Positions 2,873 through 15,023 of a stretch of DNA of 64,000 nucleotides are shown piece by piece. Where the stretch lies: assembly GCA_014384675.1 (NCBI GenBank), contig JACNFK010000024.1, positions 17,018 through 81,017 of the forward strand, written 5' to 3'. Every line of letters starts with the position of its first letter. Position 1 is the first letter of the stretch. The translations under genes and the position numbers were made by a program. The notes below the pieces were generated by a model, which was not told the origin of the DNA, searched no databases, and saw only the letters and a program-made list of their open reading frames with translations. This DNA is from Candidatus Thiopontia autotrophica. GTDB taxonomy: Bacteria > Pseudomonadota > Gammaproteobacteria > GCF-002020875.

Positions 2873-4099
2873 CTAAAGCCCGATCTGCCCGGCACGGTTG
2901 GTAAAGAAGATGCCGCTGGGGCTCTCCATTGGCAGGCTCTTCAGTAGCTCAAATGTCTCTGTGTCATAGATCTCTACCAAGTTTTTGTCACGCACTGAAA
3001 CCCATACCTCTTCACCTCTGGGGGTGAACTCCATATGCAGAACCCCTTTGCCTGGGTGCATCTGGTGGATTATATTCAGACTCTCTGCATCAATAATTTG
3101 CAGGGTGTCGTTGTGCGGGAATGCAAAATTTACCCAGATCTGACGGCCATCCGGACGGCTTATGGCAAATACGGGCTGGCTATGTACCTGAATTCGTCCG
3201 CTCTCTTGCCAGCTTCCGCTATCAACAACCAGTAGTTCGTGACGGCCCACAGCTGGCAGAAATGTTTTATCTCCAGCCTCTGCCCACCCCTCAAGATGAG
3301 GCATTTTGTATACCGGGAGTTTCTGTTCGCCACGTCCATAGTGGTCAAGAATACGTTTCACCCCATTTTCCGGGTGCCAGAGATCGAGCAGGGCGAGCCC
3401 ATCCTCGCCAAACAGCCCGGCAATGTAGATTCGGCCATCAGGAGTAATCAATCCATCATATGGTTGTCGGCCGATATCGGTGAATTTTTTGATGGATGAT
3501 GAGCCATCATCACTCATCTTGATAAGCCATATCTCGCCACTATCAAACAGACTGAATACAAAATGGTTTCCGGGGGCATCTACCAGACCAACCGTGCGAG
3601 ACCTCTTCTGCTCTGAGAGTGCAGTTGCCTCGATATCTGCTACCAGCTCAAGGGTTTTGCTGTCAAAAATGCGTACACCACCAGGCTCATAGTTTGATAC
3701 AGCAACCCATCTGCCGTCCTGAGAAATTGCCCCACCAATACTGTTGCCGCCCTGAATAATACGTTTTTCTATCTTTTTGCAGAGCAGGTCAATCTTGGTG
3801 AGGCCACCATCTCTACCGAAGATAAAGGCGTAGCGTGCATCGCGAGAGTAGACAGCGGAGGCGTGGGAGAGGTCACCAAGCTCCTCAACTCTTCCCAGTG
3901 ATATACGTTCTGTGGTATCGACTATCTGCACAGAGCCACTGGCACGTTCGATTATTATGCCAAGGTCGCCGGTTCCTCTGGTCTCACAGGCGAGCAGTGA
4001 GGTATGAATAGTTCCCAGCAGGATAATTATTGGTATCAACAGGTTATTTCTCATACCAGGTGCCTTGCAGTAGATGTGTAGCAATATAGTGGATCTCAT
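2873..4099 (-). CDS. nirF: NirF, a haem d1 biosynthesis protein with a cd1-like beta-propeller; probably a lipoprotein (likely start MRNN..LLAC)
   Basis: About 390 aa of propeller sequence similar to the NirS C-terminal domain, with no c-haem motif. Lipobox LLAC. Adjacent to nirC and nirE. Confidence 0.75.
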   Translation of the reverse strand: MRSTILLHIYCKAPGMRNNLLIPIIILLGTIHTSLLACETRGTGDLGIIIERASGSVQIVDTTERISLGRVEELGDLSHASAVYSRDARYAFIFGRDGGLTKIDLLCKKIEKRIIQGGNSIGGAISQDGRWVAVSNYEPGGVRIFDSKTLELVADIEATALSEQKRSRTVGLVDAPGNHFVFSLFDSGEIWLIKMSDDGSSSIKKFTDIGRQPYDGLITPDGRIYIAGLFGEDGLALLDLWHPENGVKRILDHYGRGEQKLPVYKMPHLEGWAEAGDKTFLPAVGRHELLVVDSGSWQESGRIQVHSQPVFAISRPDGRQIWVNFAFPHNDTLQIIDAESLNIIHQMHPGKGVLHMEFTPRGEEVWVSVRDKNLVEIYDTETFELLKSLPMESPSGIFFTNRAGQIGL

Positions 4100-4400
4100 T
4101 GCCGGTTAAAATAGGGGCCCATGGAGGCATTGGAGTGCCGGGACGGCCATGAGATATGGTTATCTCCAGAAAATTCTCAGGGTATAGGTTGAGCCGGACC
4201 GGATCCAGACTTGGGCCCAATCCTCCCTTTAGGGTCAGGCCATGGCATGAGCCACAATCCTGTTTGACCATATGGGCAATCTCGGCCTTCCTCTTTTCAG
4301 TCAGGCCATTATCTGAGCTGTTATCTCCAGCCCCAATAGATACGGGAGAGATTGTGATGAGGAGTGGAATCAGCAGGAGAGATAGATATTTCATCCACAA
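4044..4400 (-). CDS. nirC: Monohaem cytochrome c55X (NirC)
   Basis: Signal peptide, a single CGSCH motif and a ~100 aa mature protein, sitting between nirE and nirF. Confidence 0.75.
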   Translation of the reverse strand: MWMKYLSLLLIPLLITISPVSIGAGDNSSDNGLTEKRKAEIAHMVKQDCGSCHGLTLKGGLGPSLDPVRLNLYPENFLEITISHGRPGTPMPPWAPILTGNEIHYIATHLLQGTWYEK

Positions 4401-5486: not shown

Positions 5487-7232
5487 ATGATTGATGGTAA
5501 GAAGAGGAGTTTCAAGAGGGGTGCAACCCTGGGTCTGGCAATAGCCATTACTCTGGGATTATCAGGGTGTGGTGACTCTGGTGATTCAGGCGCATCAAAA
5601 ACGGCAGCACCAGCACCGGCTCCAGCAGCAGCCCCAGCACCGGCTCCTGTCCCAGCAGCACCAGTCAAGGTGGCTGCGTCCGGGCCATCACTATCAGAGG
5701 CTGATTTTGAGCACTCCAAGAAGCTCTACTTCCAGCGCTGTGCAGGTTGTCACGGTGTACTGAGAAAAGGGGCGACAGGCAAGAGTCTGGAGCCAAAAGA
5801 TACTCGTGAGCTAGGTCAGGAGCGTCTGGAGAAGATTCTGACTTACGGAACAGACGGTGGAATGAACAACTTTGATGATATCTTCAGCAAGGAAGAGATC
5901 TCAATGATGGCCACCTACATTCAGTTGGAGCCACCAATTCCACCAGAGATGTCACTGGCGATGATGAAGGAGCGTACCGAGGTATTTATTGATCCCAAGG
6001 ACTATCCAACCAAGCCACTACATGGACGTAACTGGGAGAACTTCTTCGTAGTTATCGAGCGTGATGCTGGTAAGGCAGCAGTAATCGATGGTGATACCAA
6101 AGAGATTATCGACCATATTGACACTGGTTACGCAGTACACGTAATCAAGGCTACCGAGCACCATGAGACCGAGCATCCTGTTGGCGGTGTTGCCGGACGC
6201 TTCTGGTACACAATGGGTCGTGATGGCGTAATGAGCAAGATCGATCTGTGGCAGAACCCAGGAAGCATGCTGGTTGCCAAGACCCAGATTGCATATGATG
6301 CACGTGATGTTGCGATCTCTGGAGATGGTAAATATGTAATTGGTGGAGGCTACTGGCCACCACACTTCGTAATTGCCGATGCTGTTACCATGGAGCCACT
6401 GAAGGTAGTATCCACTCGTGGGGTAAATGTTGATGGTGAGTATGTAAATGAGTCACGTGTAGCTGCGGTCTACACCACTCCAAACGAGCCAACCTTCCTG
6501 GTTGCGGTCAAGGAGCTGGGGCAGATGTGGCAGGTTGACTACAGTGATATCGAGAATTTGGATATCACCAAAATCGACTCTGCGAAGTTCCTCCATGATG
6601 GATTCTTTGATCCAACCGGACGTTACTTCCAGATTGCGGCAAATGCATCCAACAAGATGGTTGTAGTAGATACCAAGACCCGCAAGCTTGAGGCGATGAT
6701 TGATACCACTGGCAAGAAGCCACACCCTGGCCCTGGTGCAAACTGGGATGATCCAAAACATGGTCCTGTAGGTGCTACGGTCCATCTGGGAACAGGTATG
6801 GTAACTGTATGGGGTAATGATCCAGCCGGTACACCAAGCAAGGCCTGGAAGATCGTACGTGAGATTGAGACTGATGGAGCAGGTGCATTTATCCGTACCC
6901 ATCCAAACTCCAAGTATGTATGGGCAGATCAGGTCAAGAACCCTGAGCCTGAGATACAGCAGTCTGTACAGGTTATCTCCAAGGAGACCGGCGAGATCGT
7001 CAAGACTATCCGGGTAACTGAAGAGCAGGGCAAGGCGGCACTCCATATTGAGTTTAACAAGGATGGAAGTGAGGCTTGGGTATCTGTCTGGAACCGTACA
7101 GATAACTCTAACCCAACTGGTGAGATCGTAGTCTACGATGCAGATACTCTTGAAGAGAAGGCTCGTATCAAGGGGCTGACCACACCAACCGGTAAGTTCA
7201 ACGTTTATAGTAGAACTAACCACGTAACTTGA
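5487..7232 (+). CDS. nirS: Cytochrome cd1 nitrite reductase NirS, copy 1, a lipoprotein form with an Ala/Pro-rich linker
   Basis: CAGCH c-haem domain plus a d1 propeller. The N-terminus has lipobox LSGC followed by GDSGDSG and (AP)n low-complexity sequence. Residues GPSLSEADF onward are identical to copy 2. Confidence 0.9.
   Translation: MIDGKKRSFKRGATLGLAIAITLGLSGCGDSGDSGASKTAAPAPAPAAAPAPAPVPAAPVKVAASGPSLSEADFEHSKKLYFQRCAGCHGVLRKGATGKSLEPKDTRELGQERLEKILTYGTDGGMNNFDDIFSKEEISMMATYIQLEPPIPPEMSLAMMKERTEVFIDPKDYPTKPLHGRNWENFFVVIERDAGKAAVIDGDTKEIIDHIDTGYAVHVIKATEHHETEHPVGGVAGRFWYTMGRDGVMSKIDLWQNPGSMLVAKTQIAYDARDVAISGDGKYVIGGGYWPPHFVIADAVTMEPLKVVSTRGVNVDGEYVNESRVAAVYTTPNEPTFLVAVKELGQMWQVDYSDIENLDITKIDSAKFLHDGFFDPTGRYFQIAANASNKMVVVDTKTRKLEAMIDTTGKKPHPGPGANWDDPKHGPVGATVHLGTGMVTVWGNDPAGTPSKAWKIVREIETDGAGAFIRTHPNSKYVWADQVKNPEPEIQQSVQVISKETGEIVKTIRVTEEQGKAALHIEFNKDGSEAWVSVWNRTDNSNPTGEIVVYDADTLEEKARIKGLTTPTGKFNVYSRTNHVT
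5682..7228 (+). repeat. Copy 1 of a 1547 bp perfect tandem direct repeat (nirS core); copy 2 lies 1712 bp downstream
   Basis: The 515 aa translations are identical and all off-frame and antisense ORFs are identical in both copies (e.g. 6018..6365 = 7730..8077). The boundaries are marked by mismatches at 5681/7393 and 7229/8941. Confidence 0.85.
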
Positions 7233-7240
7233 TGAGAGAG

Positions 7241-7276
7241 GCCCCTTTAACCTGACTGGTGAAAGGGGCTTTTTAC
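7241..7276 (+). terminator. Rho-independent terminator between nirS copy 1 and copy 2
   Basis: gcccctttaacc...ggtgaaaggggc hairpin followed by TTTTT. Confidence 0.6.
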
Positions 7277-8944
7277 AAGAGGAGGTTTTTTGTTTTGTTT
7301 AGGAGAACTATAAAGATGAAGAAATTATCATTGACTGCATTAAGTCTTGCAGTAGGTGTTGCAATGGGAGGGGTTGGCACTACAGTAAGTGCTGGGCCAT
7401 CACTATCAGAGGCTGATTTTGAGCACTCCAAGAAGCTCTACTTCCAGCGCTGTGCAGGTTGTCACGGTGTACTGAGAAAAGGGGCGACAGGCAAGAGTCT
7501 GGAGCCAAAAGATACTCGTGAGCTAGGTCAGGAGCGTCTGGAGAAGATTCTGACTTACGGAACAGACGGTGGAATGAACAACTTTGATGATATCTTCAGC
7601 AAGGAAGAGATCTCAATGATGGCCACCTACATTCAGTTGGAGCCACCAATTCCACCAGAGATGTCACTGGCGATGATGAAGGAGCGTACCGAGGTATTTA
7701 TTGATCCCAAGGACTATCCAACCAAGCCACTACATGGACGTAACTGGGAGAACTTCTTCGTAGTTATCGAGCGTGATGCTGGTAAGGCAGCAGTAATCGA
7801 TGGTGATACCAAAGAGATTATCGACCATATTGACACTGGTTACGCAGTACACGTAATCAAGGCTACCGAGCACCATGAGACCGAGCATCCTGTTGGCGGT
7901 GTTGCCGGACGCTTCTGGTACACAATGGGTCGTGATGGCGTAATGAGCAAGATCGATCTGTGGCAGAACCCAGGAAGCATGCTGGTTGCCAAGACCCAGA
8001 TTGCATATGATGCACGTGATGTTGCGATCTCTGGAGATGGTAAATATGTAATTGGTGGAGGCTACTGGCCACCACACTTCGTAATTGCCGATGCTGTTAC
8101 CATGGAGCCACTGAAGGTAGTATCCACTCGTGGGGTAAATGTTGATGGTGAGTATGTAAATGAGTCACGTGTAGCTGCGGTCTACACCACTCCAAACGAG
8201 CCAACCTTCCTGGTTGCGGTCAAGGAGCTGGGGCAGATGTGGCAGGTTGACTACAGTGATATCGAGAATTTGGATATCACCAAAATCGACTCTGCGAAGT
8301 TCCTCCATGATGGATTCTTTGATCCAACCGGACGTTACTTCCAGATTGCGGCAAATGCATCCAACAAGATGGTTGTAGTAGATACCAAGACCCGCAAGCT
8401 TGAGGCGATGATTGATACCACTGGCAAGAAGCCACACCCTGGCCCTGGTGCAAACTGGGATGATCCAAAACATGGTCCTGTAGGTGCTACGGTCCATCTG
8501 GGAACAGGTATGGTAACTGTATGGGGTAATGATCCAGCCGGTACACCAAGCAAGGCCTGGAAGATCGTACGTGAGATTGAGACTGATGGAGCAGGTGCAT
8601 TTATCCGTACCCATCCAAACTCCAAGTATGTATGGGCAGATCAGGTCAAGAACCCTGAGCCTGAGATACAGCAGTCTGTACAGGTTATCTCCAAGGAGAC
8701 CGGCGAGATCGTCAAGACTATCCGGGTAACTGAAGAGCAGGGCAAGGCGGCACTCCATATTGAGTTTAACAAGGATGGAAGTGAGGCTTGGGTATCTGTC
8801 TGGAACCGTACAGATAACTCTAACCCAACTGGTGAGATCGTAGTCTACGATGCAGATACTCTTGAAGAGAAGGCTCGTATCAAGGGGCTGACCACACCAA
8901 CCGGTAAGTTCAACGTTTATAGTAGAACTAACCACGTAACCTAA
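7259..8944 (+). CDS. nirS: Cytochrome cd1 nitrite reductase NirS, copy 2, a soluble periplasmic form (likely start ATG 7316, MKKLSLTALSLAVG)
   Basis: Sec signal peptide ending VSA-G; otherwise identical to copy 1. Confidence 0.9.
   Translation: MKGAFYKRRFFVLFRRTIKMKKLSLTALSLAVGVAMGGVGTTVSAGPSLSEADFEHSKKLYFQRCAGCHGVLRKGATGKSLEPKDTRELGQERLEKILTYGTDGGMNNFDDIFSKEEISMMATYIQLEPPIPPEMSLAMMKERTEVFIDPKDYPTKPLHGRNWENFFVVIERDAGKAAVIDGDTKEIIDHIDTGYAVHVIKATEHHETEHPVGGVAGRFWYTMGRDGVMSKIDLWQNPGSMLVAKTQIAYDARDVAISGDGKYVIGGGYWPPHFVIADAVTMEPLKVVSTRGVNVDGEYVNESRVAAVYTTPNEPTFLVAVKELGQMWQVDYSDIENLDITKIDSAKFLHDGFFDPTGRYFQIAANASNKMVVVDTKTRKLEAMIDTTGKKPHPGPGANWDDPKHGPVGATVHLGTGMVTVWGNDPAGTPSKAWKIVREIETDGAGAFIRTHPNSKYVWADQVKNPEPEIQQSVQVISKETGEIVKTIRVTEEQGKAALHIEFNKDGSEAWVSVWNRTDNSNPTGEIVVYDADTLEEKARIKGLTTPTGKFNVYSRTNHVT
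7394..8940 (+). repeat. Copy 2 of the 1547 bp perfect tandem repeat
   Basis: See copy 1. Confidence 0.85.
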
Positions 8945-8954
8945 GTAGAGTAGT

Positions 8955-8990
8955 GGCCGGCACCTGCATATCAGGTGCCGGTTTTTTTAT
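8955..8990 (+). terminator. Rho-independent terminator after nirS copy 2
   Basis: ccggcacctg / caggtgccgg stem followed by TTTTTTT. Confidence 0.6.
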
Positions 8991-10708
8991 ATAATTTATT
9001 TGTACTGCCTGAGGAGCCTTTAATGCCGATTCCTGAAAGACCAAGTTTCAAAGAGAGAATAAAGGTGCTGTTTTCGCGTCGTTTGATCCTCAATACGACA
9101 CTTGGAGGTGGTCTGGTGTTTGCCCTGTTTGGAATTATCTTTTGGGGTGGATTCAATACGGCAATGGAGGTAACAAATACCCTGGAGTTCTGTATCTCAT
9201 GTCATGAGATGGAGGACAATGTATACAAGGAGTACCAAAAGACTATCCACTATGCGAATCGTACTGGAGTACGGGCAACCTGTTCGGATTGTCATGTGCC
9301 TGATCCATGGATACATAAGGTAGCCAGAAAGATTGAGGCCAGTAACGAGGTGTTACACAAGATGTTGGGGACTATTGATACCCCTGAAAAGTTTGATGCA
9401 AAACGTCTGCAGTTGGCAAAAAATGTATGGCGTTCGATGAAGAGTACTGACTCCAGAGAGTGTCGGAACTGTCACAATTTTGAGGCGATGAATGGAGACA
9501 TGCAGAAGCCTCGTGCGATGAATCAACATACCAATGCGCTCAGGTCAGGACAGACCTGTATCGACTGCCATAAGGGTATTGCGCACAAAGGGGTTCATAA
9601 GCTGTTGAGTGATGAAGAGAAGGAGGCGATGGAGGCCCCTGATGAGTCACTGGCGAAACCTGAGGCAAAACTGTTCCAGCTGGCTGATCTGGATCCGGTA
9701 GCTGCGGCAGCAGCCAAGGCTGCAGCAGAGAAGGCAGCAGCAGAGGCAGCAGCAGAGGCAGCAGCCTCGGCCCAGGCAGGTAATTGGGAGACTATTGTGG
9801 GACGAGAGATTCACCTCATCTATCCTGGCCAGACATCCATAGAGTGGGTGCTGAATGGAACAGATCACGGTGGAGCAAATGCCTTTAAAAAGGGTGGAGA
9901 TCGATGCGTTACCTGTCATGACAAAGAGGCCAAGATTATGGGCGACCGTATAGTTGGTGGCACGCATGAGAAGGCGATGGAGCCAACTCCGATTGCTGGC
10001 AAGCGGGGTGGAGTTCCTGTCATGGTGAAGGCCGCTCATGATGGCGATAATCTATACATGCAGTTTACCTGGCATGATGTTGACCACCATACAGCGGGGC
10101 ATAAGTCGGTTGTTGAGGCTGAGCGGATGGATCCCGAGAACCCTGTCAAGCTGGCGATAATGTTTGCGACCGATCAAGTAGAGTTTGCAGACCGTTCAGG
10201 ATGTTGGGGAACTTGTCACCATGATGCCAATGGCATGCCCCATCAGCCAGAGGGTACAGATGTAACCAAGTACACCAAGGAGTCACGCACCAAGATTGAG
10301 GTCAAGGGGCGTCGTGGCAAGAAGCGTGGTGGCTGGGACAAGTTGAGAAAGCCTGAAGAGATTAAGGCTGCACTTGATCAGAAAAAGATCATGGATCTTG
10401 TGCGCTACAAGGCTGGCAGCAACCAGGCAGAAGATGGAATGATCCTGGCCAGCCGTGATATGAGTGGTAACAGTGATGACCTTGAGTTTGAGGGCAAGAG
10501 AGATGACCAGGGAAACTGGGTGGTAGAGATGAAGCGTAAGCTGAATTCCGGTGATGCAGATGATCTGTCACTGGCGCTGGACCAAGTCTATAATTTTGGT
10601 TTTGCTATCCATGATGACTACACCAATGGACGCTTCCACCATGTCTCATTTGGTTACAAGCTTGGGTTTGATGACCCAAAAGCGGAGATCAATGCTGTAA
10701 AATGGTGA
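8975..10708 (+). CDS. nirT: NirT/NapC-family membrane tetraheme quinol dehydrogenase fused to a ~330 aa C-terminal domain with extra haem motifs (likely start 9023, MPIPERP)
   Basis: TM helix then CISCH, CSDCH, CRNCH, CIDCH. An Ala-rich linker (AAAAAKAAAEKAAAEAAAEAAA) follows. The C-terminal domain carries CVTCH and CWGTCH (CX3CH). Confidence 0.8.
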   Translation: MPVFLYNLFVLPEEPLMPIPERPSFKERIKVLFSRRLILNTTLGGGLVFALFGIIFWGGFNTAMEVTNTLEFCISCHEMEDNVYKEYQKTIHYANRTGVRATCSDCHVPDPWIHKVARKIEASNEVLHKMLGTIDTPEKFDAKRLQLAKNVWRSMKSTDSRECRNCHNFEAMNGDMQKPRAMNQHTNALRSGQTCIDCHKGIAHKGVHKLLSDEEKEAMEAPDESLAKPEAKLFQLADLDPVAAAAAKAAAEKAAAEAAAEAAASAQAGNWETIVGREIHLIYPGQTSIEWVLNGTDHGGANAFKKGGDRCVTCHDKEAKIMGDRIVGGTHEKAMEPTPIAGKRGGVPVMVKAAHDGDNLYMQFTWHDVDHHTAGHKSVVEAERMDPENPVKLAIMFATDQVEFADRSGCWGTCHHDANGMPHQPEGTDVTKYTKESRTKIEVKGRRGKKRGGWDKLRKPEEIKAALDQKKIMDLVRYKAGSNQAEDGMILASRDMSGNSDDLEFEGKRDDQGNWVVEMKRKLNSGDADDLSLALDQVYNFGFAIHDDYTNGRFHHVSFGYKLGFDDPKAEINAVKW

Positions 10709-10709
10709 G

Positions 10710-11069
10710 ATGATAATTATTAATTACAGGCCTCTCATGCTTCTGCTGGGAGGCCTTTTTTTTGTTTCAGGATGTTCAAATGATCTGCCTGTGCCAAAGG
10801 TGGTTGAGATTGAGATCATTAATTATGGATACCAACCACAAACTGTGACCATTAATCCCGGTGATACAGTACGCTGGATTAACCGTGAGAAGAGACAGTA
10901 CCACTCGGTAAAACTTGATGGTGATGGTGGCGGTGGTTCGGTTAATTCAGAGTATCTCTTTCCTGGGGAGAGCTGGGAGCATACCTTCAGTCAAGAAGGG
11001 GTGTACAACTATATGTGTGGCCCACATTCGGAAATGGTTGGAGCTGTGAAGGTGAAATCACTCATCTAG
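10710..11069 (+). CDS. Type-1 (blue) copper cupredoxin lipoprotein (plastocyanin/pseudoazurin-like)
   Basis: Lipobox FVSGC. H..YMCGPHSEM(V) has the C-x-P-H-x-x-M copper-ligand spacing. Its start lies 2 bp after the nirT stop. Confidence 0.75.
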   Translation: MIIINYRPLMLLLGGLFFVSGCSNDLPVPKVVEIEIINYGYQPQTVTINPGDTVRWINREKRQYHSVKLDGDGGGGSVNSEYLFPGESWEHTFSQEGVYNYMCGPHSEMVGAVKVKSLI

Positions 11070-11887: not shown

Positions 11888-12475
11888 ATGAGTTTTATGA
11901 AGAAAAGTTACTCTATGTTTGCGCTATTTTCATTAATCATTATAGCGCTGGTAGTTGTCTTTCTGGGGTTCGTGGTATTTGGCCCGGGTAATCCGGTTCC
12001 ATGGGTAATATTGGTTATTCTGGCATTGATCCCATACTTTCATGAACGCAGTGTGCGCAAGGAGTATATAGAGTGGAGTAGCCAGTACGAGGTTGGTGTC
12101 AAATTAATTGACCATGACCACCAGAAGTTGGTTGGGCTGTTAAACCAGGTTGTCAGTGCCTCTCACTATAATATGGGGAAGGGGTATGTGAAGGGTGTCA
12201 TTGAGGAGCTGATCGAATATACCAAATACCACTTCGAGCGCGAGGAGGGGTTGATGCGGGATAACAACTGGACTGATATTGATGCCCATATGAAACAGCA
12301 CAGGGATATGGTGGATAAAGTGGAGGCCTTTAGTAGTAAATATACAGGGGATCTGGATGGTCAGGAGGAGCTCAGTACAGAGATTCACCACTTCCTGAAG
12401 GATTGGTTGCTTGACCATATTGTACGTACCGATAAAGAGCTTGGTCAATTCCTGATATCCAGTGGAGTGAAGTAG
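11888..12475 (+). CDS. Membrane-anchored hemerythrin-like (bacteriohemerythrin) protein
   Basis: Two N-terminal TM helices followed by an HHE cation-binding domain (IDHDHQKL, HFEREE, DWLLDHI). Confidence 0.75.
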   Translation: MSFMKKSYSMFALFSLIIIALVVVFLGFVVFGPGNPVPWVILVILALIPYFHERSVRKEYIEWSSQYEVGVKLIDHDHQKLVGLLNQVVSASHYNMGKGYVKGVIEELIEYTKYHFEREEGLMRDNNWTDIDAHMKQHRDMVDKVEAFSSKYTGDLDGQEELSTEIHHFLKDWLLDHIVRTDKELGQFLISSGVK

Positions 12476-12481
12476 AGTTAG

Positions 12482-13168
12482 ATGAGATATCCAGGCAGGC
12501 TATTTGGGGTTGGTGCACTACTCCTCTCCTTTGCGATCTATGCTGATGCACCGCTGGATAATGAGCTTACTCTTGCAATGGCAGCCACCCCAAACGTGGA
12601 GTCGGGCAGAGAGGTTTTTAGACTCTGTGTTGTCTGTCACCAGATTAACTCATGGGGAACTATTGATGGCAGCTATCCACAACTGGCGGGACAGCATAGC
12701 AGTGTAATCATCAAGCAGATTGCCGATATCAGGGCAGGCAATCGGGATAATCCATCCATGCTGATAATAGCCCAGGAGAAGGTGATGGGTGGCCCCCAGG
12801 CAATTGCAGATGTAACTGCCTATATCCAGACGTTACCTATGACCCCGACCCCTGGCGTTGGCCCGGGACACAAACTGGGTAAGGCAGAACGTACATATTT
12901 CAGAAAATGTGCCGAGTGTCATGGTGGTGATGGTGGTGGAGATTCGGGTAGATATTTCCCCCGCCTTCAAGGGCAGCACTATGCCTATCTGTTGAGACAG
13001 TTACAGTGGATCCGTGATGACAAGAGACGCAATGCCAATAGCGAGATGATGCGCAGGGTTAGCAAGATGAAGGATGCCGAGCTTTCAATCCTGGCGGACT
13101 ATATCTCCAGAATCAGGCCGCCTGCAGAGGATATGGCACCAGAGGGTTGGAAGAACCCGGATTTTTAA
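12482..13168 (+). CDS. Dihaem cytochrome c4-family protein
   Basis: Signal peptide with CVVCH and CAECH motifs. Paralogous to the dihaem cytochrome at 31748 (shared QHYAY.LRQ..WIRD.KRRNAN). Confidence 0.8.
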   Translation: MRYPGRLFGVGALLLSFAIYADAPLDNELTLAMAATPNVESGREVFRLCVVCHQINSWGTIDGSYPQLAGQHSSVIIKQIADIRAGNRDNPSMLIIAQEKVMGGPQAIADVTAYIQTLPMTPTPGVGPGHKLGKAERTYFRKCAECHGGDGGGDSGRYFPRLQGQHYAYLLRQLQWIRDDKRRNANSEMMRRVSKMKDAELSILADYISRIRPPAEDMAPEGWKNPDF

Positions 13169-13565: not shown

Positions 13566-15023
13566 CTAAAAAAGTTTAATAGGATGGGGGTTTGGGGGAT
13601 TTGACAAAATCTCTCTGATCCGGGCAGCCATATCATTGGCTGATATGCCATGAGCCAGTTTTGTTATGAATTCACCATTGGGAGCCATCAGAAAGACCCC
13701 TGAGGAGTGGTCCATAATGTATTGCTCAGGATCTCTCGATTCGTCCACAACCTTCTCATACTTCACATTATATATCCGGGCGACTCGGTCAGTCATGGCC
13801 TGAGTGCCGGTTAGTCCTGTCAGGGCAGGGTGAAAATAGTTAACATAGGTGCTTAGTACATCAGGGGTGTCTCTGGCAGGATCAACCGTAATAAAGTATG
13901 GCTGAATCTGCTCTGCATCATCCCCTATCCTGTTTAGTGCTGAAGAGATGGTGAGTAGTGAGGTTGGGCAGACATCGGGGCAGAAGGTGTATCCAAAGTA
14001 GACCAGGTGAAATTTCCCCAACATATCCTGATCAGTAAAGAGTTTGCCGTGATGATCACGTAGCATGAATTTGCCGCCAATATAGCTGGACGGTGTAGTG
14101 TCTTGGGCGCTGTTTTTAGCCACCTCTTTTGCAGACTCCTCTACAATTGAGTCATCCACATACTTGAGGCACTGTTTGATGGTGACTGTATTATGCTCCA
14201 TCAACTTGAAGTAGTGGTCTTCTCCAGCCTCTATCCTTGATCCAAAACTGTCCAGTAGACCAATATTTAGAGTGGTTCCATCGGTAAGCAGAGATAGTGC
14301 ATCTGGATCAATCTGTTGTTCAGTCAACAGACAGCTGTAGTCACCGCTCTTGAGCCGGGCTCTGTTTTGCAGAAATGAGAGCCCTCTGACTGGTGTCATT
14401 GGGGACTCTGCAACTACCCCTCGAATTTTTAGTGCATATGCCTGTTCAAAGTACTGCAAGGTATCATAGTAGGCCATTCCAATGCCGCTCTTCAATCCAC
14501 GGTATCCATACTCCAGACGACGATCCAGTTCAGCCAGTCTTCTCAATAGATTGCGACGGTTGTTTTCATATAGTGACTTACGTTCTGGATCAAGCTTTGT
14601 CAGCGCCCTGGCAAGTTCATCGGTAATGATGAGAATATTGCGGCTATCAAGCCAGATGAATGGATCACGCCTCTCCTTGTTCCAGCGTGATGTAAGGACC
14701 TTGATCTCCTCATTGTCGAGCAGGGTAAAGAGGGTGGTGTTTGGGCCAAGCAGCTCTAGCTGATTAACCATAAACTGCTCCAGCTCGGGCCCTATCCATA
14801 CAACCATATCTGCATCTCTGAGAGCATGTTGTTTGGATTTTGAGAGAGTTGCCGTGTATGGCGACTGCTGGTTGTCTACAAGTAGCTCGGGTGGGCGTGT
14901 ATCTGCCAGTAGACCAGAGAGAATTGAGTGGATTGGTTTTATGGTAGTGACAACCTTGAGCGGCTCACCACTCCAGGTAGCTGAAGAGAAGATCAGTAGT
15001 GCAAAGATGGAGAGCAGTCTCAA
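13566..15023 (-). CDS. Fusion protein: ZnuA/TroA-like periplasmic metal-binding SBP domain plus a C-terminal SCO1/SenC copper-chaperone domain
   Basis: Signal peptide and ~300 aa of cluster-9 SBP fold (DPFIWLD where ZnuA has DPHxWLD). The C-terminal ~170 aa carry CPDVCP (CxxxC) and a conserved His (MDHSSGVFL) as in Sco proteins. Confidence 0.7.
   Translation of the reverse strand: MRLLSIFALLIFSSATWSGEPLKVVTTIKPIHSILSGLLADTRPPELLVDNQQSPYTATLSKSKQHALRDADMVVWIGPELEQFMVNQLELLGPNTTLFTLLDNEEIKVLTSRWNKERRDPFIWLDSRNILIITDELARALTKLDPERKSLYENNRRNLLRRLAELDRRLEYGYRGLKSGIGMAYYDTLQYFEQAYALKIRGVVAESPMTPVRGLSFLQNRARLKSGDYSCLLTEQQIDPDALSLLTDGTTLNIGLLDSFGSRIEAGEDHYFKLMEHNTVTIKQCLKYVDDSIVEESAKEVAKNSAQDTTPSSYIGGKFMLRDHHGKLFTDQDMLGKFHLVYFGYTFCPDVCPTSLLTISSALNRIGDDAEQIQPYFITVDPARDTPDVLSTYVNYFHPALTGLTGTQAMTDRVARIYNVKYEKVVDESRDPEQYIMDHSSGVFLMAPNGEFITKLAHGISANDMAARIREILSNPPNPHPIKLF

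Follow-up and report, generated by a model that had tools for sequence, protein, structure and literature searches.

Although known since 1991, NirT and NirB remain poorly characterised biochemically. In the nirSTBM cluster of P. stutzeri (Stutzerimonas), they are encoded in this order immediately 3' of nirS (PMC3884062, PMC13086519, PMC8954225). NirT is a tetrahaem cytochrome of the NapC/NirT family, NirB is a dihaem cytochrome c-552 with an EbdC-like domain that contains a CXXCH and a CWXXCH motif, and the next gene is nirM (cytochrome c551). NirT presumably passes electrons on to NirB, and NirB in turn reacts with NirS (PMC8954225); nitrite reduction in strain ZoBell requires NirT (PMC13086519). 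Both proteins are missing from many NirS denitrifiers (PMC13086519), and Rhodocyclus contains NirB without NirS (PMC8954225). The electron route to the cd1 nitrite reductase sets the passage through the proton-motive bc1 complex, and hence the energy conserved; it may also affect nitrite accumulation and the release of NO and N2O (discussed in PMC13086519).

Three further systems share parts of this architecture. In Azospira suillum, the same pair of families lies side by side as Dsui_0144 (NapC/NirT) and Dsui_0143, an EbdC homologue whose CXXCH and CWXXCH pair is conserved in P. stutzeri NirB (PMC3884062). The two are proposed to link the quinol pool to a periplasmic reductase in the perchlorate reduction island (PMC3884062). 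The gamma subunits of ethylbenzene dehydrogenase (EbdC) and of the Kuenenia nitrite oxidoreductase (NxrC) have the fold and belong to the Pfam family of the NirB-type domain; they are subunits of molybdoenzymes with one non-covalent haem b (PMC3884062 for EbdC). The pentahaem cytochromes TorC and DorC follow the same general design, in which a NapC/NirT tetrahaem quinol dehydrogenase is extended by an extra C-terminal haem domain for a terminal reductase. The C-terminal domain of TorC is small and monohaem.

In the window (the whole 64,000-nucleotide stretch of Candidatus Thiopontia autotrophica DNA that was analysed), the NirT and NirB parts form one polypeptide, NirTB, joined by a predicted helical Ala-rich linker. 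In this it differs both from nirSTBM and from the Azospira suillum pair, which consists of split genes serving perchlorate reductase rather than NirS. Also unlike in nirSTBM, the NirB part lacks a separate signal peptide, and the next gene encodes a lipoprotein cupredoxin instead of nirM.

The nirTB gene and its neighbours

The genes flanking nirTB include nir genes, the cupredoxin gene and a Dnr-type regulator. The features of the locus are as follows.

4044..4400, nirC-like monohaem cytochrome c, possible other donor to NirS
5487..7232, + strand, nirS1, cytochrome cd1 nitrite reductase (PF02239, E=8.5e-117), with lipobox LSGC and an Ala/Pro-rich tether
7316..8944, + strand, nirS2, the second cd1 nitrite reductase, which has an ordinary signal peptide and shares 100% identity with nirS1 across 1547 nt
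8955..8989, + strand, intrinsic-terminator-like hairpin and T-run 3' of nirS2, containing GTG 8975
9011..9016, + strand, ribosome-binding site GAGGAG, 6 nt 5' of ATG 9023
9023..10708, + strand, nirTB coding sequence, 561 aa from the most likely start; stop TGA at 10706-10708
10710..11069, + strand, lipoprotein cupredoxin of the plastocyanin/azurin family (PF00127, E=6.4e-12), with lipobox VSGC
12482..13168, dihaem cytochrome c, possible other donor to NirS

An uninterrupted open reading frame spans 8975..10708 on the + strand and carries both modules, as stated in the initial annotation. The start at GTG 8975, which had been proposed together with a length of 577 aa, is probably not the true one. 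This codon falls within the terminator-like hairpin of the upstream nirS2 (8955-8983; a 12-pair stem with 8 G-C pairs, then TTTTTAT), while the ribosome-binding site and the N-termini of the closest homologues (P0001 and P0097, which share the start Met in MPIPE/MSIPE) favour ATG 9023. The latter is most likely the start codon, which makes NirTB 561 rather than 577 aa long. The start of nirS2 likewise looks to be MKKLSL at 7316 rather than the listed GTG 7259. As a strong terminator-like hairpin lies between nirS2 and nirTB, co-expression of the two genes is not guaranteed. At the other end, 1 nt separates the stop of nirTB from the start of the cupredoxin gene. The Cu-ligand pattern H...C-x2-H-x2-M is present in the cupredoxin sequence, and the protein is a probable partner or electron shuttle of NirTB.

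Domains and haem motifs of NirTB

Both halves of NirTB have domain matches far beyond chance, with PF03264 at E=2.6e-72, PF09459 at E=1.8e-29, and thousands of homologues. The features within the protein are listed below.

9083..9157, + strand, transmembrane anchor helix LILNTTLGGGLVFALFGIIFWGGFN, residues 21-45 (highest Kyte-Doolittle window)
9113..9595, + strand, NapC/NirT tetrahaem domain (PF03264, TIGR02161, four CXXCH)
9191-9205, + strand, CISCH, haem c motif of the NirT part
9281-9295, + strand, CSDCH, haem c motif of the NirT part
9461-9475, + strand, CRNCH, haem c motif of the NirT part
9557-9571, + strand, CIDCH, haem c motif of the NirT part
9695..9769, + strand, Ala/Glu/Lys-rich linker PVAAAAAKAAAEKAAAEAAAEAAAS, predicted single continuous alpha-helix
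9776..10705, + strand, NirB (cytochrome c-552-type) domain, EB_dh/DOMON beta-sandwich (PF09459, Foldseek and profile matches)
9905..9919, + strand, CVTCH, canonical haem c attachment motif; C, C and H invariant in fused and standalone relatives
10202..10219, + strand, CWGTCH, atypical CWXXCH (CX3CH) haem c motif, invariant in all modules
10235..10237, + strand, Met of GMP, near-invariant candidate distal haem ligand
10610..10642, + strand, two invariant candidate distal haem ligands, the AIHDD His (10610) and the first of the two RFHHVS His (10637), columns H282 and H291

The description of the N-terminal part as a NapC/NirT module with a transmembrane helix and four CXXCH motifs is confirmed throughout. 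PF03264 (Cytochrom_NNT) matches over profile positions 13-172 of 174 with 242.6 bits against a cut-off of 24.1; the hydrophobic segment has its counterpart in an N-terminal helix at residues 27-53 of the AlphaFold model; and CISCH, CSDCH, CRNCH and CIDCH are invariant among homologues. TIGR02161 (napC_nirT) gives E=1.2e-78 and 263.2 bits, below its trusted cut-off of 310.6. This strong yet sub-threshold score argues against NapC proper, not against the NapC/NirT superfamily. A PDB sequence search with the NirT part returned no match at E<=0.001. From its domain matches, the NirT part is a predicted quinol dehydrogenase of the NapC/NirT superfamily.

The TorC models also score below their cut-offs (TIGR02162 torC, 239.8 vs 478.2 bits; NF011606, 174.1 vs 455 bits). 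The TorC match covers model positions 25-247 of 387 only, which is the NapC-like half, and is confined to the N-terminal 220 residues of NirTB. Membership in TorC is rejected on this score and on the C-domain, which in NirTB is of the EB_dh type, with a 310-aa, predicted dihaem DOMON/EB_dh fold in place of the small domain of TorC/DorC. The earlier view that the C-domain resembles neither a class I cytochrome c nor a TorC-type domain thus holds.

The low-complexity linker is also present as described, but it is shorter than the 30 residues first given. It comprises about 25 residues (18 A, 3 E and 2 K), and the acidic segment LLSDEEKEAMEAPDE that precedes it is conserved and remains within the alignment to the TorC model. 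In the full-length model, DSSP assigns helix to the linker (residues 225-249), with low-to-moderate confidence.

The C-domain matches PF09459 (EB_dh) with 103.9-107.5 bits against a cut-off of 33.3. A Foldseek search with its structural model retrieved NxrC (7b04_C, 3.9e-8) and EbdC (2ivf_C, 1.3e-7) with probability 1.0, and a sequence-profile search found the same two chains (9.1e-7 and 2.5e-6). A single-sequence PDB search with the C-domain gave nothing meaningful, NxrC and EbdC being reached by the profile and fold searches only. Unlike these subunits, the C-domain contains two c-type motifs. It scores 23.8 bits with TIGR03477 (cut-off 169.85), and the annotated flanks of nirTB showed no molybdoenzyme genes; a haem b gamma subunit of the EbdC type, as in type II DMSO reductases, was rejected on these three grounds.

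As proposed in the initial annotation, the C-domain has one canonical motif (CVTCH) and one non-canonical motif (CWGTCH), which contain its only cysteines. All 12 cysteines of NirTB fall in the six Cys motifs of the protein, and both C-domain motifs are invariant across 120 fused homologues and the standalone relatives. Two further segments, HHTAGH and GMPHQ, had been put forward as sources of conserved His/Met ligands. The Met of GMPHQ stands, being conserved at 90% or more in fused and standalone forms, but HHTAGH lies in a variable loop, is not conserved, and was rejected as a haem-ligand motif. The invariant His residues of AIHDD and RFHHVS had not been flagged before; the segment that holds them (10610..10642) aligns with the C-terminal strand region of EbdC and NxrC (2ivf_C, 7b04_C). 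These His residues and the Met of GMP are candidate distal haem ligands. The haem-binding loops have low confidence in both AlphaFold models (pLDDT <50). With all motifs occupied, NirTB would carry two predicted covalent c-type haems in the NirB domain and six overall.

The idea of a novel cytochrome-like extra domain is not borne out, given the EB_dh/DOMON family, the NirB Cys signature and the existence of standalone genes with 48% identity. The C-domain is accordingly read as NirB. Its tie to P. stutzeri NirB (UniProt P24037) rests on literature statements and on the source names of homologues, which include 'cytochrome C552' and 'cytochrome c-552 precursor'. The gene two loci 3' of nirS in P. 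stutzeri RCH2 bears the annotation 'Ethylbenzene dehydrogenase'. One nir cluster contains the two parts as standalone genes, a nirT of 204 aa and, after it, a nirB of 341 aa that shares 48% identity with the C-domain. With a NapC/NirT module and an EB_dh domain bearing NirB-type Cys motifs, the protein is therefore read as a NirT–NirB fusion.

The fusion in related loci

The in-frame joining of a NapC/NirT module to a larger haem domain is genuine. The two parts share one frame, with no intervening stop, in all 79 related loci that could be assessed, and the best 80 loci of a genome scan are all fused (Stutzerimonas is not among these 80). The low-complexity, GCA/GCG-rich DNA of the linker (9695-9769) makes indel errors plausible, and split nirT/nirB arrangements are known elsewhere; an assembly or sequencing artefact, in which a frameshift in the linker joins separate nirT and nirB genes, might on these grounds be suspected. 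A frameshift or stop within 9600..9700, which would mean two separate genes, had been named in the initial annotation as refuting the fusion. The artefact is countered by the single frame in 79/79 independent genomes and MAGs, with finished plasmids from cultured Azospirillum and Ruegeria among them, and in four independent metagenome contigs that encode the same fusion at 92% identity. Furthermore, standalone NirB relatives have a signal peptide, which the C-domain lacks. The artefact is effectively refuted by the 79 fused loci and can be regarded as extremely improbable.

NirTB shares 92% identity with the metagenomic P0001, 88% (C-domain) with an uncultured Piscirickettsiaceae MAG and 52-69% with the other genomes of the scan. 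The gene order is also conserved: nirS is directly upstream of nirTB in all 63 loci with enough sequence, and a cupredoxin gene is downstream in 53 of the 69 loci with enough downstream sequence. Fused NirTB with the same motifs and the same nirS-nirTB-cupredoxin neighbourhood is found in Sedimenticola, tubeworm and clam symbionts, Candidatus Thioglobus and Oleispira, as well as on plasmid p4 of Azospirillum brasilense Sp7 and on Ruegeria plasmids. Many relatives differ from the protein of the window in carrying the NirB module twice in tandem (about 900-960 aa; 36/82 related loci and 118/120 best protein matches), whereas the NirTB described here is the short form with one.

The fusion is widespread, and NCBI annotation names it 'NapC/NirT family cytochrome c' or 'cytochrome C552'. 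NirTB is also said to have been described in Halomonas (Halomonas sp. 2A) by Li et al. 2018. The term 'fused NirTB' is already in print (PMC13086519). A fusion that is common, annotated in databases and present in the literature is therefore ordinary. Together with its tight linkage to nirS and the cupredoxin gene in many marine sulfur oxidisers, symbionts and oxygen-minimum-zone bacteria, it makes a good comparative case for NirT and NirB acting as one unit. As this unity has already been argued in the literature, the window provides one further example and no new principle.

Proposed electron route to NirS

Quinol would be oxidised by the NirT part at the membrane face, and the electrons would pass from its four haems to the two haems of NirB. 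From there they might reach NirS, the cytochrome cd1 encoded immediately upstream, either directly or via the lipoprotein cupredoxin encoded immediately downstream and presumably translationally coupled to nirTB. Nitrite reduction could thus be supplied without the bc1 complex. The initial proposal that the fusion wires quinol oxidation to NirS agrees with the standard hypothesis for NirT and NirB (PMC8954225, PMC13086519). The analysis establishes the identities of the domains, the conserved motifs, the fusion and the nirS-nirTB-cupredoxin order; haem occupancy, direction of electron flow, partner and bc1 independence are inferred. A membrane-anchored NirT, a helical spacer and a NirB domain that together relay quinol electrons to NirS, directly or via the cupredoxin, is the preferred reading, with a probability of about 0.7.

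The adjacency of nirS and nirTB in 63/63 loci and the conserved dedicated cupredoxin suit such a stoichiometric chain better than an occasional activator. The latter role, in which NirTB is a reductive activator, maintenance partner or regulator of cd1 while steady-state electrons arrive via bc1 and soluble c-type cytochromes, is unlikely. For this role, the presence of NirTB is tied to nitrite-accumulation phenotypes and not to the ability to reduce nitrite (PMC13086519), and reductive activation of cd1 by a NapC-type cytochrome has been described (Zajicek et al. 2004, as cited in PMC13086519). The nirC-like cytochrome and the dihaem c encoded nearby, as well as the terminator separating nirS2 from nirTB, are also in its favour; the reported necessity of NirT for nitrite reduction in ZoBell speaks against it.

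A profile search showed that NapC/NirT-EB_dh-MtrA-MtrB clusters, which are not nir clusters, house a subgroup of standalone NirB-like forms. As pairs of NapC/NirT and NirB-like proteins occur beside MtrA/MtrB(PioB)-type genes and in the Azospira perchlorate island, the module is not NirS-specific. NirT-NirB might be a generic unit that connects quinone pool and periplasm in either direction, whose real partner is the cupredoxin serving NirS, Nor and Nos, or through which electrons flow in reverse into the quinone pool. The conservation of the cupredoxin gene downstream, and its apparent translational coupling to nirTB, would fit this possibility. Yet the upstream neighbour is nirS in every related locus, neither the annotated flanks of the window nor loci L001-L004 showed a further terminal reductase gene, and the nitrite-reductase cluster offers no obvious donor into quinone. 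Such a generic link is accordingly improbable, and the relay to NirS remains the better account of the locus.

The lipid anchor suggested for NirS1 is corroborated by its lipobox, but its placement in the same membrane plane as NirTB is not, as Gly or Ser follows the lipidated Cys in both NirS1 (lipobox LSGC) and the cupredoxin (lipobox VSGC). In E. coli, Gly or Ser at this +2 position leads to sorting to the outer membrane. Under this rule, NirS1 and the cupredoxin would reside in the outer membrane and NirTB in the inner membrane. It is tempting, though rather doubtful, to extend the preferred reading to a tethered, bc1-independent quinol:nitrite oxidoreductase made up of the nirS-nirTB-cupredoxin triad with its lipid-anchored NirS copy and lipid-anchored cupredoxin. 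By analogy with Neisseria AniA/Laz/c5, a rigid helical linker (and, in the long forms, the second NirB module) might serve as a spacer through which the inner-membrane quinol dehydrogenase reaches partners on Ala/Pro-rich arms, possibly at the outer membrane.

Reading frame and neighbourhood of nirTB

The surroundings of nirTB (nirT fused to nirB) constitute a nir regulon, which includes two nirS genes, nirTB, and a cupredoxin gene.

Features of the nirTB neighbourhood
1087-2787: two adjacent ferredoxin-type ORFs with multiple 4Fe-4S motifs, the second with Fer4_5
5487-7232, plus strand: nirS1, cytochrome cd1 nitrite reductase
about 7240-7275: hairpin 3' of nirS1
7316-8944, plus strand: nirS2, cytochrome cd1 nitrite reductase
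8955-8989: strong, T-tailed, intrinsic-terminator-like hairpin (12-bp stem) separating nirS2 from nirTB
9023-10708, plus strand: nirTB
10710-11069: cupredoxin, a lipoprotein (lipobox VSGC), beginning 1 nt past the nirTB stop
11888-12475: protein with a hemerythrin domain and a hydrophobic stretch at its N-terminus
13566-15023, minus strand: ZnuA-SCO1 fusion, a single ORF adjoining the DUF2249 gene
Minus strand: nirF, nirC-like gene, nirE
Further regulon neighbours: Crp/Dnr-type regulator, dihaem cytochrome c, DUF2249

A plus-strand ORF extends without interruption from 8975 to 10708 and contains all the elements described in the initial annotation: four CXXCH motifs (all within the first 200 residues), one CVTCH and one CWGTCH in the C-terminal part, a single strongly hydrophobic segment (residues 21-45) as the sole membrane-helix candidate, and, between the halves, the low-complexity linker PVAAAAAKAAAEKAAAEAAAEAAAS (9695-9769). 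All 12 cysteines of NirTB lie within the six haem motifs. The full-length AlphaFold model renders residues 225-249 as an unbroken helix, with modest confidence. The start initially assigned, GTG 8975, should probably be moved: because this codon sits within the hairpin 3' of the upstream nirS stop, GAGGAG precedes ATG 9023, and the nearest homologues begin at the equivalent methionine, the product is most likely a protein of 561 residues.

Identity of the C-terminal domain

The N-terminal part corresponds to Cytochrom_NNT (NapC/NirT; Pfam, E=2.6e-72), which is also the NCBIfam assignment. For the C-domain, profile searches and structure prediction, both suggested initially, were carried out. 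Residues 333-558 of the long ORF match EB_dh (PF09459, "ethylbenzene dehydrogenase" gamma-subunit-like; Pfam, E=1.8e-29). The structural model (mean pLDDT 63; the beta-sandwich core is confident, the haem loops are poor) matches Kuenenia NxrC (7b04_C, E=3.9e-8) and Aromatoleum EbdC (2ivf_C, E=1.3e-7) in a fold search, with weaker matches to CBM9 and DOMON domains, and a profile built from diverse relatives reaches the same two PDB chains. The C-domain thus belongs to a well-known haem-binding fold family. NirTB scores below the NCBIfam cut-offs of the TorC-type and EbdC-type equivalogs.

Searching 1.84 billion representatives in full with HMMER gave 464 C-domain relatives, many of which are standalone proteins of ~315-345 aa that have a signal peptide of their own. 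An alignment of 17 standalone representatives shows both Cys motifs and two histidines to be invariant. Homologues bear database names such as "cytochrome C552" and "cytochrome c-552 precursor". One standalone relative (48% identity) is encoded directly 3' of a standalone 204-aa NirT, in a cluster containing nirS/nirE/nirC/nirF/nirDLGH/nirJ/nirN. NirB is described as the dihaem cytochrome c-552 that shares a transcript with NirS and tetrahaem NirT; in the proposed order, NirT reduces NirB and NirB reacts with NirS (PMC8954225, PMC13086519). P. stutzeri RCH2 has a gene annotated "Ethylbenzene dehydrogenase" two loci past nirS. Azospira Dsui_0143, an EbdC homologue, is encoded beside a NapC/NirT gene, and its CXXCH plus CWXXCH pair is stated to be conserved in P. 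stutzeri NirB (PMC3884062). What the initial reading called a "large extra cytochrome-like domain" is NirB, whose family has been known since 1991; the link to P. stutzeri NirB itself rests on the literature.

Distribution and gene order of the fusion

The full-length search yielded 2884 proteins at E<=1e-5, and PF03264 and PF09459 occur together in 120/120 of the best of these. The window encodes a one-module form, shared by two of the 120 (92% and 78% identity); 118 are ~830-975 aa long, 116 of which contain two complete NirB modules. A tandem NirB pair follows NirT in most homologues (~900-960 aa; loci L013, L024, L026, L028, and others; proteins P0002-P0120). Mean identity between the two modules of one protein is 77%, versus 67% for module 1 between proteins, which suggests repeated duplication or concerted evolution.

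Among the matches listed, NirT and NirB parts share one frame with no stop in 79/79 testable loci, which bears out a genuine fusion; nirS lies immediately upstream in 63/63 loci with enough sequence, and a plastocyanin/azurin-family gene within 900 nt downstream in 53/69. The survey of its distribution, proposed initially, finds the fusion widespread. The closest relative listed, among one-genome-per-species contigs, is an uncultured Piscirickettsiaceae MAG (88% over the C-domain); other listed carriers are Methylophaga, Sedimenticola, tubeworm and bivalve symbionts, Candidatus Thioglobus, Oleispira, Amphritea, Thiothrix, and some Alphaproteobacteria. nirTB is also present on finished plasmids of Azospirillum brasilense Sp7 and Ruegeria, where it is annotated "NapC/NirT family cytochrome c" and is likewise followed by a cupredoxin gene. 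The initial observation stands with small corrections, and its interpretation is partly supported: the fusion is genuine and its function plausible; the C-domain is a known protein, and the fusion is annotated and already noted in print. For biochemistry, the conserved nirS-nirTB-cupredoxin gene order and the difference between one- and two-module forms offer modest leads.

Proposed electron transfer to NirS

A 1547-nt block (5682-7228 and 7394-8940), spanning the whole mature protein, is 100% identical between nirS1 and nirS2, which differ only at the N-terminus; this could reflect recent duplication, gene conversion, or assembly collapse. Two copies are also present on related contigs L001, L003, L004, L005, L010, L011, and L079, and one on L002. 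NirS2 carries an ordinary signal peptide, NirS1 instead a lipobox (LSGC), consistent with the lipid anchor claimed initially, and after it an Ala/Pro-rich (AAPAPAP-type) tether. Lipoprotein sorting in E. coli depends on the residue following the lipidated Cys; by this rule, the Gly of NirS1 and the Ser of the cupredoxin would point to the outer membrane, not to the inner membrane that NirS1 would share with NirTB in the initial proposal. Partners tethered across the periplasm, as in Neisseria AniA/Laz, are conceivable. The cupredoxin, with its type-1 copper ligand pattern (His...Cys-x2-His-x2-Met), is likely a dedicated redox partner of NirTB.

Domain identities, conserved haem motifs, fusion, and synteny are established. 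In the proposed path, the NirT part would oxidize quinol, and electrons would cross the six haems of NirTB and exit to NirS directly or via the cupredoxin, bypassing bc1. Fusion of adjacent partner genes is classic evidence that NirT and NirB act as a complex, as PMC13086519 also concludes. Several findings call for caution: the terminator-like hairpins 3' of both nirS copies suggest that nirS transcripts often stop before nirTB, other cytochromes that could serve NirS are encoded nearby, Rhodocyclus possesses NirB without NirS (PMC8954225), and similar pairs occur beside other gene sets, as set out below. The main alternative is that NirTB acts on cd1 as an activator or regulator, not as the bulk electron donor.

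At three further loci (L087, L088, L089), a standalone NirB-like EB_dh gene (~320 aa) lies between a standalone NapC/NirT gene and genes for an MtrA-like decahaem protein and an MtrB/PioB porin; there the quinol-dehydrogenase/dihaem pair seems to serve outer-membrane electron conduits. As such pairs adjoin MtrA/MtrB-type genes and also occur in a perchlorate island (PMC3884062), NapC/NirT-NirB is a general quinone-pool-to-periplasm module.

The hemerythrin-domain gene stays close to nirS/nirTB across many related loci, whichever way it is oriented, and its product may sense or scavenge NO or O2 as part of the nir regulon. The ZnuA-SCO1 ORF joins a ZnuA-type periplasmic metal-binding domain to an SCO1/SenC copper chaperone domain and may provide the copper of the cupredoxin or of other respiratory enzymes. 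The ferredoxin-type ORFs resemble NapG/NapH-type quinol-oxidizing Fe-S proteins; contigs L001-L004, syntenic elsewhere, are different in this region.
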